This document shows, in pieces, positions 3,001-64,000 of a stretch of DNA of 64,000 nt. The position numbers are program-made. Source of the DNA: Candidatus Lustribacter sp. (lineage in GTDB: Bacteria > Vulcanimicrobiota > Vulcanimicrobiia > Vulcanimicrobiales > Vulcanimicrobiaceae). Where the stretch lies: positions 992,001 to 1,056,000 of the forward strand of contig OZ255842.1 of the NCBI GenBank assembly GCA_965277805.1, in the 5' to 3' direction. Positions within the stretch are counted from its first letter, which is position 1, and each line of letters opens with the position of its first letter.

Positions 3001-6000
3001 GCAGGCTGCGGTGCGTGAGCGTGCGATGGAAGCCGAGCGTAATGCCCCAGGCGCCGGTGATGTAGTAGAGCACCAGCATCACGACGACGGCGCTCCAGCT
3101 GAACGTGCCCGGTATCAAGGCGCAGAGTGCGCCCAGGTGGACGACGCCGAGGCCGATGCCCGTGGTAAGGCCTCGCGGATCGAAGGGACGCGCGGAGCTT
3201 GATTTCATCGTCATTGAACGTGCGCTTAGGAGCGGCAAACTCCTGGGTACGGAAGGGTCAATTCTGAGCCTGGAAACGCCCGGCGGGCCGCTCCCCGGTT
3301 TACCGTACGGAATTTTGTGGAAAAGCTGAGTACAATGGATACCTTGATTACGTGCCCCTGCGGCCATACGCTCGCTTCCCATGACACCGAGGGATGCTTC
3401 GGGGAACGGCTCCGTCCGTGCCACTGCCGCCGCGATCGGGCCACCGCGCTGGATGCCGCGGTCAACGTGGTCCGGACGCCCCAGATGCCGGCCGGTTATT
3501 CCGTAGCCTCGCCCAACCGGCTGACCGCGTAATCCCCTCGTCTTAAGGCGTCCTCGGCTCGTCGAACGGCGCCCTTGACCTCGCTTTCGGGCGGGTGTAA
3601 CATAGACGCCTATGCCAATCGGCGGGTAGCGCGAGAAAGAGCGGGGACCCTCTCCATCGTCATGGGGAGACCTAGCCTTTTTTGCATTTCTGAGGTTGGC
3701 GCGCTCGAATAGGTGATTGTACGGTAATGGCTTCCAAGACGACGGCGGAAAAACCCAAGACTTCCCGGAGTAAAAAAGCAGCGGCACCGGCCGCTGAACC
3801 AGCCGCGAACGGAACCGCGATCAAGGCGCAAAACATCGCAAGCGCCTCTTTCGTCGTTCCCGAAGAGGCGTTCACAGTAGAGCTGCCCGACGATCCGGGC
3901 CCGGCGCGCAAGCGTCATACCTTCGCGAAGATCCCCGATGTCCTGAATCTGCCCGATTTGATCGAGCTGCAGAAGGCTTCGTTCAAGTGGTTTATCTCCG
4001 ACGGGCTGATGGACGCGTTCAACTCGATCTCGCCGATCAAGGACTTCACGGGCAACCTCGTGCTGGAGTTCGGCGACCACAGCCTCGGCGAGCCCAAGTA
4101 CTCGGTTGAGGAATGCCGCGAACGCGACATGACCTACAGCGCGCCGCTGCGCGTCCGCGTCCGTCTTATCACGGCGGAGTCGGGCGAAATCAAGGGTATC
4201 CCCGACCAGGAAATCTTCATGGGCGATTTCCCGCTCATGACCGACAAGGGCACGTTCATGATCAACGGCGCGGAGCGCGTGATCGTGAGCCAGCTCGTCC
4301 GCTCGCCGGGCGTGTACTTCTTGCAGGACGCCGACACCAACAACCGCCCGACGTTCAACGCGACGATCATCCCCAACCGCGGCGCTTGGATCGAATTCGA
4401 AACCGACAACGGCACGAAGAACGACGAGACCGAGGGCACGATCGGCGTCCGCATCGACAAGAACCGCAAGATCTACGCGACCACGTTCATCCGCGCGCTC
4501 TCGCGGCCCGACATGGGCTACGACTGGCAGAGCGATGAAGCGATTCTTGCGCTCTTCGACGGCTCGCCCTTGATCGCGAATTGCCTTGAAAAAGACAAGG
4601 ACATCAAGACCAAGGAAGACGCGCTCAAGGAAATCTACAAGAAGCTGCGTCCCGGCGAACCCGAGAATGCCGAAAACGCCGAGAAGCTGCTCGAATCGCT
4701 GTTCTTCGATGAGAAGCGCTACGATCTCGCCGGCGTCGGCCGCTACAAGCTCTCGGGCAAGCTCGAGAAAGAGTACGTCGCCGCGGGCGTCTCGGTGCCG
4801 CAAGTCGACAAGAAGGCGCTGACGCGCGACGACATGATCGCGGTCATCCGCCGCTTGATCAAAGTCGCCACGGGCAAAGTCCACAAAGACGACATCGATC
4901 ATCTCGGTAACCGCCGCATCCGCTCGGTCGGCGAATTGCTGCAGAATCAGTTCCGCGTCGGTTTGCTGCGTCTCGAGCGCGTCGTGCGCGAGCGCATGAC
5001 CGTGCAAGACATCGAAACCGTCACGCCGCAGGCGCTGATCAACATCCGCCCTGTCGTGGCCGCCATCAAAGAGTTCTTCGGCTCCTCGCAACTCTCGCAG
5101 TTCATGGACCAAACGAACTCGCTCGCCGAGCTCACGCACAAGCGGCGTCTGTCCGCCCTCGGGCCCGGCGGTCTGTCACGCGAACGCGCCGGCTTCGAAG
5201 TCCGCGACGTCCATCACAGCCATTACGGCCGCATCTGCCCGATCGAAACGCCGGAAGGCCCGAACATCGGTCTGATCGGTTCGCTCGCGACGTTCGCGCG
5301 CGTCAACCGCTACGGCTTCATCGAGACGCCCTATCGCGTCGTCAAAGACGGTATCGTCACCGACGAGATCCGTTACTTCACGGCCGATCGCGAAGACGAC
5401 TACATCGTGGCGCAAGCCAACACCACGATGGACGCCAAGGGCAAGATCACCGCGAATACGGTTATCGCCCGGTACGCGGAAGAATACGTCGAGGAGCCGC
5501 CGGACAAGATCCAGCTCATGGACGTTTCGCCGAAGCAGATCGTGTCGGTCGCGACGGCCCTGATTCCGTTCCTCGAACACGACGATGCGAACCGCGCCTT
5601 GATGGGCGCGAACATGCAGCGTCAGGCCGTGCCGTTGCTTCGTCCGCAGTCGCCGATCATCGGCACCGGCATGGAGTATCGCGCTGCCAAGGATTCCGGC
5701 GGTTGCGTGCTCGCACGCGCCAACGGTGAAGTCATCTCCGTCGATGCGAAGGCCATCGGCCTCAAGCACGACGAGGACGGCCTCGATCACGAGTACGACC
5801 TGCTGAAATTCACGCGCTCGAATGCGGGCACGTGCATCAACCAGCGCCCGATCGTCAAGGTCGGCGATCGCGTCGTGCGCGGCCAGATCCTCGCCGACGG
5901 TCCGTCGTCGGATGTCGGTGAGCTCGCCCTGGGTCAGAACGTGTTCGTCGCGTTCATGCCGTGGGAAGGCTACAACTACGAAGACGCCATCCTGATCAGC

Positions 6001-63000: not shown

Positions 63001-64000
63001 GTTCTTCCTTCGCTCGTGGCGCAACGCGATCGTGGTGATGATTGCGATCCCGGCCTCGCTGCTCGTCACGTTGGCGGCGATGCGCCTCGCGAACTTCACC
63101 CTCGACACGGTGTCGCTCTTGGCGATGACGCTGATCATCGGCATTTTGGTCGACGATTCGATCGTCGTGCTGGAGAACGTCGAGCGCCACTTCCACCGCG
63201 GCGAAGGCCCGTCGGAAGCGGCGATCAAGGGCCGCTCGGAAATCGGCGTGGCGGCAATCGTCATCACGCTGGTCGACGTCGTCGTATTTTTGCCGATCTC
63301 GTTTTTGCCGGGATCGGTCGGACTGTTCTTGCGCGAGTTCGGCCTCGTGGTCACCGTCGCGACCCTGACGTCGCTGTTCGTGTCGTTCACGGTGACGCCG
63401 TCCTTGGCCGGTCGCTGGGCGCTTCTCTCGACCTGGCGGCCGTGGCCGTGGATCAACCGCTTCAGCGATGGCTTCGAGCGCGCGCGTTCGAGTTACGCCG
63501 ACCGCGTGCTACCGTGGGCGCTCGAACGCCGCGGCCTCGTGGCCGCAATCTCCGCGCTCTCGCTGGTCATCGCGGTGTCGCTCATTCCGCTTGGGCTCGT
63601 CGGTTTCGAGTACATTCCGCCGGTCGACCGCGGCCAGATCTACCTGACGATGACCTACCCGCCCGGCACGCCGCTCGCCACGACGCGCGCGGGATTGCTC
63701 AAGGTCGAGAGCGCGATCGACGGCAACCGCGACGTGCAAGCCGAATCATCGATGGCCGGTGCATACCTCGGCCAGCTGAGCGGCTATATCAACAACGGCG
63801 CGGTCGCGCAGATGAACATCTTCCTGCGCGAAAAACGCTCGCAATCCACGGCATCCTTGGCCGCGAGTTTTCAGCGCACGGCAAAACGGCTTGCGCCCTC
63901 GGCGACGATCGTCTCGGTACCGGCGACTGATATCGCCGGTGGTAACACGCAGCCGATCGACGAGACGGTCTCGAGTCTCGACGGTATCCCGGAACCCTAC

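Follow-up and report, generated by a model that had tools for sequence, protein, structure and literature searches.

Break-up of the rpoB-rpoC gene pair in the Vulcanimicrobiaceae and a promoter-proximal box common to both genes

The genes of the beta and beta' subunits of RNA polymerase, rpoB and rpoC, are adjacent in almost all bacteria and constitute a textbook case of a conserved gene pair. In the genome analyzed here, which probably belongs to the family Vulcanimicrobiaceae (= Baltobacteraceae) of the Eremiobacterota/Vulcanimicrobiota, the pair is broken up, and the same state recurs throughout the family. Each of the two genes is preceded by a sigma-70-like promoter sequence, with the box YCTRTGCC starting exactly 5 nt past it. 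We consider it likely that the break-up of rpoBC concerns the whole lineage, that rpoC is placed under its own rpoB-type sigma-70 promoter and leader, and that the box keeps both genes under one control. Coordinates given below refer to the window, i.e. the whole stretch of 64,000 nucleotides that was analyzed, unless they are stated to run along the contig.

The rpoB gene occupies positions 3727-7617 of the plus strand and encodes a protein of 1296 aa in which the Rpb2 domains 1, 2, 3, 45, 6 and 7 are all present and in order (Pfam, E-values from 1.8e-136 to 6.6e-22). The C-terminal 169 aa of RpoB form an acidic tail containing 42 E and 22 D. The rpoC gene lies beyond the window at contig 1073907-1077719, also on the plus strand, and consists of one unsplit ORF of 1270 aa with a GTG start and Rpb1 domains 1-5 in order (Pfam, E-values from 1.9e-84 to 5.7e-15). 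Both genes are intact and single-copy in this single-contig genome of 5.53 Mb. The distance between the rpoB stop and the rpoC start amounts to 74,289 bp, in full agreement with the 74 kb claimed in the initial annotation, so that rpoC does not follow at the operon-like spacing of tens to a few hundred bp with no intervening gene.

The distribution of the split was established on a family sample of 151 genomes, 122 of which contain both genes and 74 of which contain both on one contig. In 69 of these 74, both genes share a strand with rpoB on the upstream side, and their Pfam matches are separated by 986 bp to 85.7 kb; in the other five, the genes are found on opposite strands, 338-526 kb apart. 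The phylum sample supplied 19 further same-contig genomes of the family (17 opposite-strand, one collinear and one rpoC-first). Over the resulting 93 genomes, the prevailing form of the break is a collinear wedge of 1-86 kb with rpoB kept upstream on the same strand (70/93), followed by 22 opposite-strand cases at 0.34-2.7 Mb and a single rpoC-first case. The opposite-strand state would result from inversions in three genera. The same-contig split recurs over 42 genera; since members of a family are kin, such counts trace back to one ancestral event or a few and do not represent independent trials. A gene-free junction was observed only in the unpublished genome G051, where the spacer measures 211 bp. 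The spacer of genus g53 (705-825 bp) had also been considered as gene-free and was rejected as such, since it contains the gene of a 179-aa chagasin-family inhibitor which, by itself, makes up the whole wedge between rpoB and rpoC. The family-wide separation at varied distances previously claimed is therefore upheld by the 93 genomes, though without any intervening gene in G051, and the gaps of about 5, 13, 17, 30 and 335 kb reported at that time (the last one opposite-strand) were recovered as G006, G009, G043, G024 and G004. The companion claim, adjacency outside the family, held as well. In the outside-family phylum sample of 87 genomes, 40 of which were scorable among the 150 best matches listed, rpoB and rpoC are adjacent in 39 of the 40 with 372-769 bp between matches (sister family 2/2, rest of the class 15/15, other classes 22/23), and adjacency was found at 70/70 informative loci of other phyla. 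The sole non-adjacent case, G173, was discarded as a true split: it corresponds to a contig break, the rpoB match stopping 335 bp short of where its 33,839-bp contig ends.

A sigma-70-like promoter is predicted upstream of rpoB at positions 3575-3603 of the plus strand (TTGACC, 17-nt spacer, TAACAT; consensus match 9/12), and the box CCTATGCC begins 5 nt past its -10 hexamer, at 3609-3616 (+). The corresponding elements of rpoC are located beyond the window: the predicted promoter at contig 1073719-1073747, equivalent to positions 1719-1747 of locus L006 (TTGACC, 17 nt, TACAAT; consensus match 10/12), and the box CCTATGCC at contig 1073753-1073760. By consensus match alone, hexamers resembling TTGACA and TATAAT at a distance of 16-18 nt are thus present upstream of both genes, with one promoter-like site in the expected position in each case, that of rpoB being the sole such site in window 2300-9800. 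The search returned one promoter-like site in the rpoB region and two in the rpoC region, as compared to about one in shuffled regions. The combined pattern TTGACN, 16-18 nt, TANNNT, 4-6 nt, CCTATGC has exactly two matches in 5.53 Mb, one 5' of rpoB and the other 5' of rpoC. A third match in the genome, made of a -10 hexamer and a box without -35, falls inside an ATPase-like ORF according to a translation read by eye. Both genes would be transcribed from these predicted promoters, and the R-T-G of the box is probably situated at or beside the transcription start, as far as can be told from the sequence. A start at the A of the box, as suggested by the promoter geometry, would give rpoB a putative 5' leader of about 115 nt (3612-3726, +). 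The A/G of the box lies 8 nt from the -10 hexamer, so that the presumed start would fall past the 7th position, where starts usually lie.

The exact pattern TTG-N20-TANNNT-N5-CCTATGCC yielded 85 matches in 79 of the 151 family genomes, the reversed-pattern control yielding 2, and all 85 could be assigned by tblastn to the region upstream of either rpoB (65) or rpoC (20). A relaxed regular expression was also applied to upstream regions that had been fetched independently of the motif. It detected the box in 19/19 family rpoB upstream regions and in 32 of the 38 available for family rpoC, the other six displaying one- or two-base variants with unchanged spacing. Upstream of rpoB, the box is present in 3/3 genomes of the sister family and in 6/7 same-class genomes, the seventh carrying a one-mismatch variant; the relaxed expression found it in 0/11 genomes of other classes and in 0/3 outgroup rpoC upstream regions. 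Both the sister family and the remainder of the class have it 5' of rpoB only, and the box is older than the split. Alignment of 51 leaders, covering both genes and three families, shows six invariant box positions amid freely diverged flanks and -35/-10 spacers; this spacer, counted from the sequences, measures 16 and 18 nt in the neighbouring same-class family and the sister family. The distance from the box to the -10 hexamer is fixed at 5 nt, variants included. The gene-free junction of G051 still has the rpoC copy of the box.

The wedge extends from position 7660 to the end of the window at 64000 and continues up to contig 1073569. It contains about 60 genes, identified by ORF calling and Pfam; the calling relied on a codon-usage score and mis-split one GGDEF regulator. 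As these genes are distributed on both strands, a single transcript covering rpoB and rpoC is implausible. The part of the wedge located in the window encodes an MFS transporter, a Che/Wsp-like cluster with GGDEF and EAL regulators, BKACE, hydantoinase A/B, an FAA hydrolase, a squalene-hopene cyclase, a Rieske oxygenase, a CoA ligase and transferase, an ECF-type sigma factor and an RND efflux system, whereas UDG, a SpoIIE phosphatase, a luciferase-like monooxygenase and hopanoid hpn genes are found past its end. Compared to the same-genus genome G043, the wedge appears as a collinear scaffold to which four extra blocks are added, and the similarity 5' of rpoC starts at contig 1073717, i.e. at the rpoC promoter. 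The content of the wedge differs between genera, with a three-gene cassette stable in g7, g26, g33 and g54. The wedge of G060 contains a MazEF pair.

An assembly or binning artefact, either a chimeric contig or the omission of a second, adjacent copy, could be invoked for a metagenome-assembled genome whose estimated contamination reaches 5.9%. It is nevertheless extremely improbable here: only one rpoB and one rpoC are present, both on the one contig of the genome, its RpoB clusters with that of G043 in the tree and the collinear scaffold of wedge genes is common to both. Moreover, three independently assembled close relatives (RpoC identity of 99%, 89% and 80%) display no rpoB within 10, 10 and 4.4 kb 5' of rpoC, and the 93 same-contig genomes, many of them single-contig, are in the same state. 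The absence of rpoB 5' of rpoC in these relatives, together with the recurrence over the 42 genera, establishes that the split in this genome does not originate from assembly. The wedge could also be regarded as a mobile-DNA hotspot and the split as a by-product of repeated island integration, unrelated to any regulatory change. Wedge sizes ranging from 0.2 to 86 kb, the genus-dependent content, the MazEF pair of G060 and the four blocks missing from G043 all point in that direction. However, the gene, tRNA and compositional features of a genomic island were not observed: Pfam gave no match to integrase, transposase or phage families among the approximately 60 wedge genes, no tRNA gene is present in the 64-kb window, and the GC content of 0.62-0.67 is in line with the genome mean of 0.643. 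The content is core-like (hopanoid synthesis, chemosensory functions, efflux, catabolism), some of the genes are stable across genera, such as the cassette of g7, g26, g33 and g54, and a hotspot would leave unexplained the occurrence of the rpoC box, or of a variant, throughout the family genomes examined. The wedge is ordinary chromosomal DNA, and its origin as a hotspot is most unlikely.

A further possibility accepts the split and denies the box a co-regulatory role, considering it either as a generic strong-promoter feature of the class or as a neutral relic of the promoter gain by rpoC. In its favor, the co-regulatory role of the box is proposed on sequence grounds, its position is that of any initial transcribed sequence and kinship alone could preserve the similarity. 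A generic feature is nevertheless difficult to reconcile with the location of the 85 exact matches from 151 genomes, 85/85 of which are at rpoB or rpoC, and with the mere two promoter-context sites of the present genome. A relic does not account for six positions remaining invariant in the 51 leaders of both genes and three families while flanks and spacers diverged, and the distance to the -10 hexamer is fixed at 5 nt. We hold this possibility to be unlikely, though less so than the preceding ones, and favor a break-up in which the shared box serves the common control of rpoB and rpoC.

The polymerase genes are not the only part of the cluster to be dispersed. In E. coli, the rplKAJL-rpoBC (beta) operon ensures autogenous control of beta/beta' synthesis. 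The cluster is distributed here over four pieces, namely nusG-rplKA, rplJL, rpoB and rpoC, and the succession nusG-rplK-rplA-rplJ-rplL is not found directly 5' of rpoB. The genes rpmG-nusG-(small ORF)-rplK-rplA occupy contig 2449672-2452518 on the minus strand and the next gene is a flavin reductase and not rplJ, which corroborates the initial annotation as to the remote location of nusG-rplK-rplA (2.45 Mb) and the absence of rplJ and rplL after it. These last two genes, unplaced at that stage, are now located at contig 2407979-2408972 (-), i.e. at 2.408 Mb and about 41 kb beyond the nusG-rplKA cluster. As neither rplJ nor rplL was found in the 5-7 kb 5' of rpoB at Eremiobacterota loci outside the family (0/4), the loss of the rplJL-rpoB linkage predates the family.

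The box contains an ATG or GTG, and this start-like codon, invariant at 8 nt past the -10 hexamer, often opens a mini-ORF of 4-6 codons (MPxGx). In this genome, a candidate leaderless mini-ORF can be read at positions 3612-3629 (+) for rpoB (ATG CCA ATC GGC GGG TAG, MPIGG*) and at contig 1073756-1073773, beyond the window, for rpoC (ATG CCC CTC GGT CGA TAA, MPLGR*). An in-frame stop occurs after 4-6 codons in 46/53 leaders of the ATG type, as compared to a single leader for each of the two remaining frames; the mini-ORF stops are TAA (32), TAG (13) and TGA (6). The GTG-type leaders and some of the ATG type display long or open frames, so the mini-ORF is not general, and in a neighbouring same-class family it is the nucleotides, and not the reading frame, that are conserved. 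Rfam 15 covariance models gave no match (E <= 1) in either leader of this genome and a single chance snoRNA match (E = 0.5) in the leaders of eight relatives. The consensus fold of 12 clade-I rpoC leaders is weak (-8.84 kcal/mol, covariation term -0.19) and, with compensatory changes in 7/22 pairs, suggestive only. Candidate hairpins were read by eye in rpoB leaders. Metatranscriptome contigs from four runs, which cannot show a transcript start, were aligned over L006 1400-2600: depth is zero at 1400-1686 everywhere, low at 1687-1768 in one of the four runs, and a 158-nt contig covers 1768-1925 in each of two runs originating from different studies, with 1-2 differences. These alignments weigh neither for nor against a start at the box.

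Leaderless short upstream ORFs occur in actinobacterial leaders, and a very short 5'-terminal leader ORF can couple translation status to the expression of the downstream gene. The opening of an MPxGx mini-ORF at the box may be proposed with less assurance than the shared control itself. As a tentative and rather speculative extension, the box could be the 5' end of a new shared leader: the A/G of YCTRTGCC would be the transcription start, and the translation or stalling of the leaderless mini-ORF would set the output of beta and beta' via a structured leader. The most conserved bacterial gene pair would then be separable because a sensor would act in trans on two identical copies of the leader, and the wedge, having grown later, would be the record of an operon being taken apart.

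The history that we propose for the break-up under common control can be briefly summarized as follows. The rpoB promoter/leader would have been copied 5' of rpoC in the ancestor of the family, which would have removed the need for a single rpoB-rpoC transcript. Ordinary insertions, deletions and inversions (the latter in three genera) would then have separated the genes by 0.2 kb to more than 500 kb, the common box maintaining one control. The rpoC gene would no longer be transcribed from the rpoB promoter, having its own promoter/leader with the architecture displayed by rpoB across the class. We infer both the duplication origin of the rpoC copy and the co-regulating role of the box; the similarity behind a shared origin of the two copies covers only about 20-25 nt, and a convergence of the two boxes under one regulator is possible. 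An origin by tandem duplication and reciprocal loss was considered and abandoned for want of direct support, since a tblastn search for rpoB or rpoC remnants between the closely spaced genes of G051, G053 and G103 gave only chance-level matches (E >= 0.3). The genomes with the smallest gaps (g51, g53) do not branch basally in the RpoB tree but fall inside one of its two main clades. Their small gaps may have arisen by secondary deletion, so that 'promoter first, wedge later' is only one possible order of events.

The existence of a family of free-living soil bacteria with separated rpoB and rpoC indicates that their linkage is not obligatory, and makes this family a natural experiment on the purpose of the operon, be it matched dosage, co-translational assembly or shared control. 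The shared box bears on the consequences of the split for expression, a question raised in the initial annotation. With it comes a candidate for a new type of leader regulating RNA polymerase genes, together with a specific and testable way in which the subunits could remain matched in the absence of an operon. Tests of the mechanism are feasible since the family has a cultured member with a closed genome (AP025523), Vulcanimicrobium alpinum WC8-2, which was assigned to the Baltobacteraceae in its description (PMC9758169), where rpoB also serves as qPCR reference. Literature searches combining rpoB, rpoC and Eremiobacterota returned no paper, and those on WPS-2 with rpoB no title or abstract dealing with gene order. 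Queries on non-adjacent or unlinked rpoB-rpoC, or on disrupted gene order, produced only plastid and drug-resistance papers, and a bacterial case may still exist in print.

With respect to known systems, rpoBC was treated as one unit in 204 genomes (Brandis 2021, PMC8046335). The present arrangement resembles the classical rplKAJL-rpoBC operon by the full Rpb2 and Rpb1 domain sets and by the rpoB to rpoC order on one strand in most family genomes; it differs from it by its four pieces, by an rpoC endowed with its own predicted promoter and leader, and by the approximately 60 intervening genes. In Haemophilus influenzae Rd, rplJL has been relocated away from rpoBC (Brandis 2021, PMC8046335), which likewise brings an essential gene pair of the cluster to another locus. 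H. influenzae Rd is one species and keeps rpoB-rpoC together, whereas the polymerase pair itself is split here in at least 42 genera with same-contig evidence. The rpo genes are also dispersed in chlorophycean and other green-algal plastid genomes, for which we know of no report of a shared promoter box. In these plastids, where rpoB, rpoC1 and rpoC2 are scattered (PMC2997540, PMC1513399, PMC1931444), the large-subunit genes stand outside one operon, as is the case here, but in extremely rearranged organelle genomes, in contrast to the 2-6 Mb genomes of the present free-living bacterial lineage. Operons with internal promoters are finally known (PMC12083536), and in these, as is proposed for the Vulcanimicrobiaceae, a promoter 5' of the downstream gene frees that gene from the first promoter. 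In the present family, the internal promoter looks like a duplicate of the promoter/leader of the operon itself, and physical dissolution of the operon would then have followed.

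In the source genome, rpoB occupies window 3727-7617 on the + strand and encodes an intact 1296-aa protein in which the six Rpb2 Pfam domains are all present. The rpoC gene is located beyond the window, at contig 1073907-1077719 on the same strand, and its product of 1270 aa displays five Rpb1 domains. Whole-genome searches returned only one copy of each gene in the single 5,533,281-bp contig, and 74,289 bp separate the rpoB stop from the rpoC start; the separation proposed in the initial annotation is therefore borne out, both genes being single and intact. The group rpmG-nusG-(small ORF)-rplK-rplA, followed by a flavin reductase, is found at contig 2449672-2452518 (- strand), and rplJ-rplL at contig 2407979-2408972 (- strand), approximately 41 kb beyond the nusG-rplKA group. 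As rpoB, rpoC, nusG-rplKA and rplJ-rplL occupy separate places, the classical cluster is split into four pieces in this genome. The genes nusG and rplK are usually contiguous; here they flank an ORF of 113 aa, faintly matching DUF1232, at contig 2450924-2451265 (positions 3924-4265 of the fetched locus L201, - strand). Between rpmG and nusG of this genome, the crude ORF caller employed detected no secE. Past its last Pfam domain, RpoB ends in a strongly acidic tail of 169 aa containing 42 Glu and 22 Asp (residues 1128-1296, window 7111-7617), and GAA, GAG and GAC codons are also abundant at the rpoB 3' ends of the relatives inspected.

The nearest public RpoC loci originate from Candidatus Eremiobacteraeota MAGs (99% and 89% identity) and from Candidatus Rubrimentiphilum (80%), which the NCBI places in the Vulcanimicrobiota, Vulcanimicrobiaceae. 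The same group is named Baltobacteraceae by Yabe et al. (PMC9758169), who describe its first cultured member, and we infer that the sampled family is the Vulcanimicrobiaceae/Baltobacteraceae. Among the 151 family genomes sampled, source genome included, the rpoC N-terminal domain was detected in 130 and rpoB domain 6 in 134. Both genes were present in 122 genomes; they share a contig in 74 of these, spanning 42 genera, and are located on different contigs, uninformative on distance, in the remaining 48. The same-contig pairs are collinear in 69 of the 74 genomes, with rpoB upstream of rpoC and 986 bp to 85.7 kb between the Pfam matches (67 of 72 without the unpublished genomes G051 and G109), and lie on opposite strands, 338-526 kb apart, in the other five (genera g5, g71 and g14). 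A phylum sample of 201 genomes provided 40 additional family genomes. The two genes share a contig in 19 of these: 17 with the genes on opposite strands, 0.35-0.6 Mb apart or 2.4-2.7 Mb the other way round (the 15 with an identified genus all belong to g71), one collinear at 4.2 kb, and one in which rpoC precedes rpoB on the same strand, 275 kb away. The five single-contig gaps listed by the initial annotation were recovered as genomes G006, G009, G043, G024 and G004. Since the members of a family are related, these counts represent one shared state and not independent events.

Outside the family, 40 of the 87 phylum genomes could be scored, having both genes among the matches listed (best 150 per search), and rpoB and rpoC are adjacent in 39 of these 40 among the matches listed, with 372-769 bp between matches. 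Without the unpublished G245, the tally among the matches listed is 38 of 39. Adjacency, again among the matches listed, was observed in 2/2 genomes of the sister family from the same order, in 15/15 of another family of the same class and in 22/23 from other classes, which, with the family counts, supports both parts of the earlier reading, a family-wide split and adjacency elsewhere. The single exception, G173, was ruled out as a true separation: only 335 bp of a 33,839-bp contig remain beyond its rpoB match, and the non-adjacency is an assembly break. The intergenic spacers measure 6, 53 and 121 bp in the three outgroup loci that were read. A set of 79 public RpoC loci comprised six with too little upstream sequence, three from the family and 70 others, mostly Bacillota with one Eremiobacterota MAG outside the family. 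The end of rpoB lies 132-397 nt upstream of rpoC in 70/70 of the latter, and no rpoB was found upstream of rpoC within 10, 10 and 4.4 kb in the three family loci. A link between rplJL and rpoB was absent from 4/4 Eremiobacterota loci outside the family, four Bacillota loci being used as positive controls.

The split is accompanied by a putative promoter/leader signature that is specific, conserved, hitherto undescribed and common only to both separated genes. In the source genome, the promoter scan predicts TTGACC, 17 nt, TAACAT at window 3575-3603 (+ strand), 124 nt before the rpoB start, as the sole site in window 2300-9800. Two sites were returned in the rpoC region, the better being TTGACC, 17 nt, TACAAT at contig 1073719-1073747, 160 nt before the rpoC start. 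In either copy, CCTATGCC stands exactly 5 nt downstream of the -10 hexamer, and the bases behind it are again similar (..TCGG..G.TA.CGCG). The expression TTGACN, 16-18 nt, TANNNT, 4-6 nt, CCTATGC matches exactly two sites on both strands of the 5.53 Mb, and looser versions of the -35/-10/box pattern return the same two. The sole further TANNNT-N5-CCTATGCC is present without a -35, within a 714-aa ORF judged by eye to be a putative AAA-type ATPase.

Across the family, TTG-N20-TANNNT-N5-CCTATGCC gave 85 matches in 79/151 genomes and two with a reversed-pattern control. Fifty-five are found 1966-2664 nt ahead of the rpoB domain-6 match, i.e. just upstream of rpoB, and 20 lie 114-227 nt ahead of the rpoC domain-1 match, with one at 1124 nt. 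The other 10 are on short contigs where the rpoB N-terminus was identified downstream in 10/10 by tblastn (59-79% identity), so that 85/85 are at rpoB or rpoC (80/80 without the unpublished genomes G028, G051, G109, G134 and G142). A relaxed expression (TANNNT, 4-7 nt, NC[TG][AG]TGCC) was run on regions fetched independently of the motif. It was found upstream of rpoC in 32/38 family regions and 0/3 outgroup regions, and upstream of rpoB in 19/19 regions from the family, 3/3 from the sister family, 6/7 from the other family of the class and 0/11 from other classes. The six rpoC misses (G015, G049, G065, G067, G072 and G136) display a -10, 5 or 6 nt, and a box variant of one or two bases; in the other family of the class, the missed rpoB region carries the variant CCTATGTC. 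Aligning 51 leaders (both genes, three families) shows 6/8 box positions to be invariant and the flanks variable. Because it stands before rpoB in the sister and same-class families and not in other classes, the box is an old feature of the class's predicted rpoB promoter, the family novelty being the second copy before rpoC. Even the 211-bp junction of G051, which holds no gene, carries this copy. Upstream of rpoC in G010, two promoter and box copies were observed (L103 positions 53-83 and 1050-1080), a CCTATGCC type 1.1 kb from the gene and a TCTGTGCC type 175 nt from it.

The history of the split was approached with a quick RpoB tree (34 rows including the unpublished G051, LG+G4, SH-aLRT support only), in which the family branches behind its sister family with 98% support and forms two clades. 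The rpoC leaders are mostly of the CCTATGCC type in clade I, which includes the source genus, and mostly of the TCTGTGCC type in clade II. The genomes with the smallest gaps (genera g51 and g53) are nested in clade I beside others with gaps of 3.8 kb, 61 kb and 338 kb, and the tree is equally compatible with short, promoter-bearing junctions being ancestral or arising by secondary deletion. Within clade-I genomes, the rpoB and rpoC leaders resemble each other over the first 20-25 nt past the box, and they also resemble the rpoB leader of the sister family. This likeness fits a copying of the rpoB promoter/leader to rpoC; the short rpoB-rpoC spacers contain no coding-sequence remnant favouring any particular copying route.

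The DNA between the two genes behaves as ordinary chromosome that grows and shrinks rather than as an island: its content differs between genera, Pfam identified neither integrase nor transposase families among the intervening genes, no tRNA was found in the 64-kb window and GC remains at 0.62-0.67 (0.643 for the genome). By our own codon-usage ORF call, the source genome has about 60 genes in this interval, distributed over both strands. According to Pfam, an MFS transporter starts 42 nt after rpoB and a Che/Wsp-like chemosensory cluster occupies window 9706-21187 (- strand), comprising CheR, CheW, a CHASE3-domain MCP, a CheA-CheW-receiver hybrid, CheB, a PAS histidine kinase with two receiver domains, and EAL and GGDEF response regulators; it is absent from the corresponding place of G043, a genome of the same genus. 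Pfam also identified TetR and GntR regulators, BKACE enzymes, hydantoinase A/B, FAA hydrolase, a Rieske oxygenase, a CoA ligase, a CoA transferase, an ECF-type sigma factor, UDG, a SpoIIE-type phosphatase, a luciferase-like monooxygenase and an RND efflux system, several ORFs belonging to no family. At window 57264-64000 (+ strand, extending to contig 1057068), a membrane-fusion protein precedes two adjoining AcrB-type RND transporters, 1088 and 1048 aa long. Squalene-hopene cyclase (shc) is at window 40053-42014 (+ strand), and a hopanoid hpn group (polyprenyl synthase, radical-SAM/DUF3463 HpnH-like protein, epimerase and squalene/phytoene synthase) at contig 1064966-1069070 (- strand). The two hopanoid groups are 31 kb apart here and much closer together in G043. 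Comparison with G043, whose gap is about 17 kb, reveals a collinear scaffold (MFS, a 205-aa ORF, 2OG oxygenase, shc and hpn genes) and four blocks of about 11, 17, 30 and 4 kb restricted to the source genome.

Other genera carry different genes at this place. A three-gene cassette on the rpoB/rpoC strand, composed of a HIBADH-like dehydrogenase, a protein of about 150 aa (weak DUF5069 match in one genome) and an alpha/beta hydrolase, recurs in g33 (L092 1938-4082), g54 (L093 4675-6817), g26 (L094 4359-6508) and g7 (L096 6758-8924). G060 harbors a MazE/MazF (PemK) toxin-antitoxin pair (L090 2209-2861, - strand). The sole intervening gene of g53 encodes a 179-aa chagasin-family peptidase inhibitor (L087 2175-2714, - strand; Pfam I42, E = 3e-11), and the unpublished G051 has none, its 211-bp spacer being the only gene-free junction seen. 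In g53, a unit of about 25 nt is repeated three times in tandem immediately upstream of the predicted rpoC promoter (around L087 2040-2130).

Lying a constant 5 nt from the -10, the box would cover the predicted transcription start region. Its variable position is the R within Y-C-T-R-T-G, and a pyrimidine-then-purine step is the usual transcription start context. R-T-G being ATG or GTG, a transcript starting there would be leaderless for a very short ORF. Such an ORF of 4-6 codons opens at the box in 51/84 leaders, with exactly five codons in 43 of the 51 and stops distributed as TAA 32, TAG 13 and TGA 6. Typical peptides are MPRG., MPLGR and MPPG, and the source genome has the candidates MPIGG (rpoB) and MPLGR (rpoC). 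A stop follows after 4-6 codons in 46/53 ATG-type leaders (against one leader in each alternative frame), but the frames of GTG-type leaders, i.e. most clade-II rpoC leaders and rpoB of the neighbouring family, range from 2 to >24 codons, which argues against a general mini-ORF; nucleotides rather than frame are conserved in these. Twelve clade-I rpoC leaders yield a weak consensus fold in which 7/22 pairs are changed on both sides. Read by eye, the clade-II rpoC leaders share an element of about 50 nt, (A/G)CGGTGGG..C(C/T)TACG.GAC...CGTGAG......CCCTGCGTAAGC, located 50-90 nt before rpoC (L096 9040-9130, also L117, L125, L130 and others), and double changes in G020 and G067 preserve the pairing of its hairpin CUUACG/CGUGAG. 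No Rfam family matched the leaders searched, clade-II element included. On this evidence, a control element shared by rpoB and rpoC is likely, and a mini-ORF opened by the box is possible.

A literature search returned no paper joining rpoB, rpoC and Eremiobacterota, and gene order is mentioned in no title or abstract of the WPS-2 papers citing rpoB. Expression work in PMC9758169 uses rpoB as a qPCR reference, and rpoBC is treated as a unit in PMC8046335; rearranged rpo genes are described in the plastid literature.
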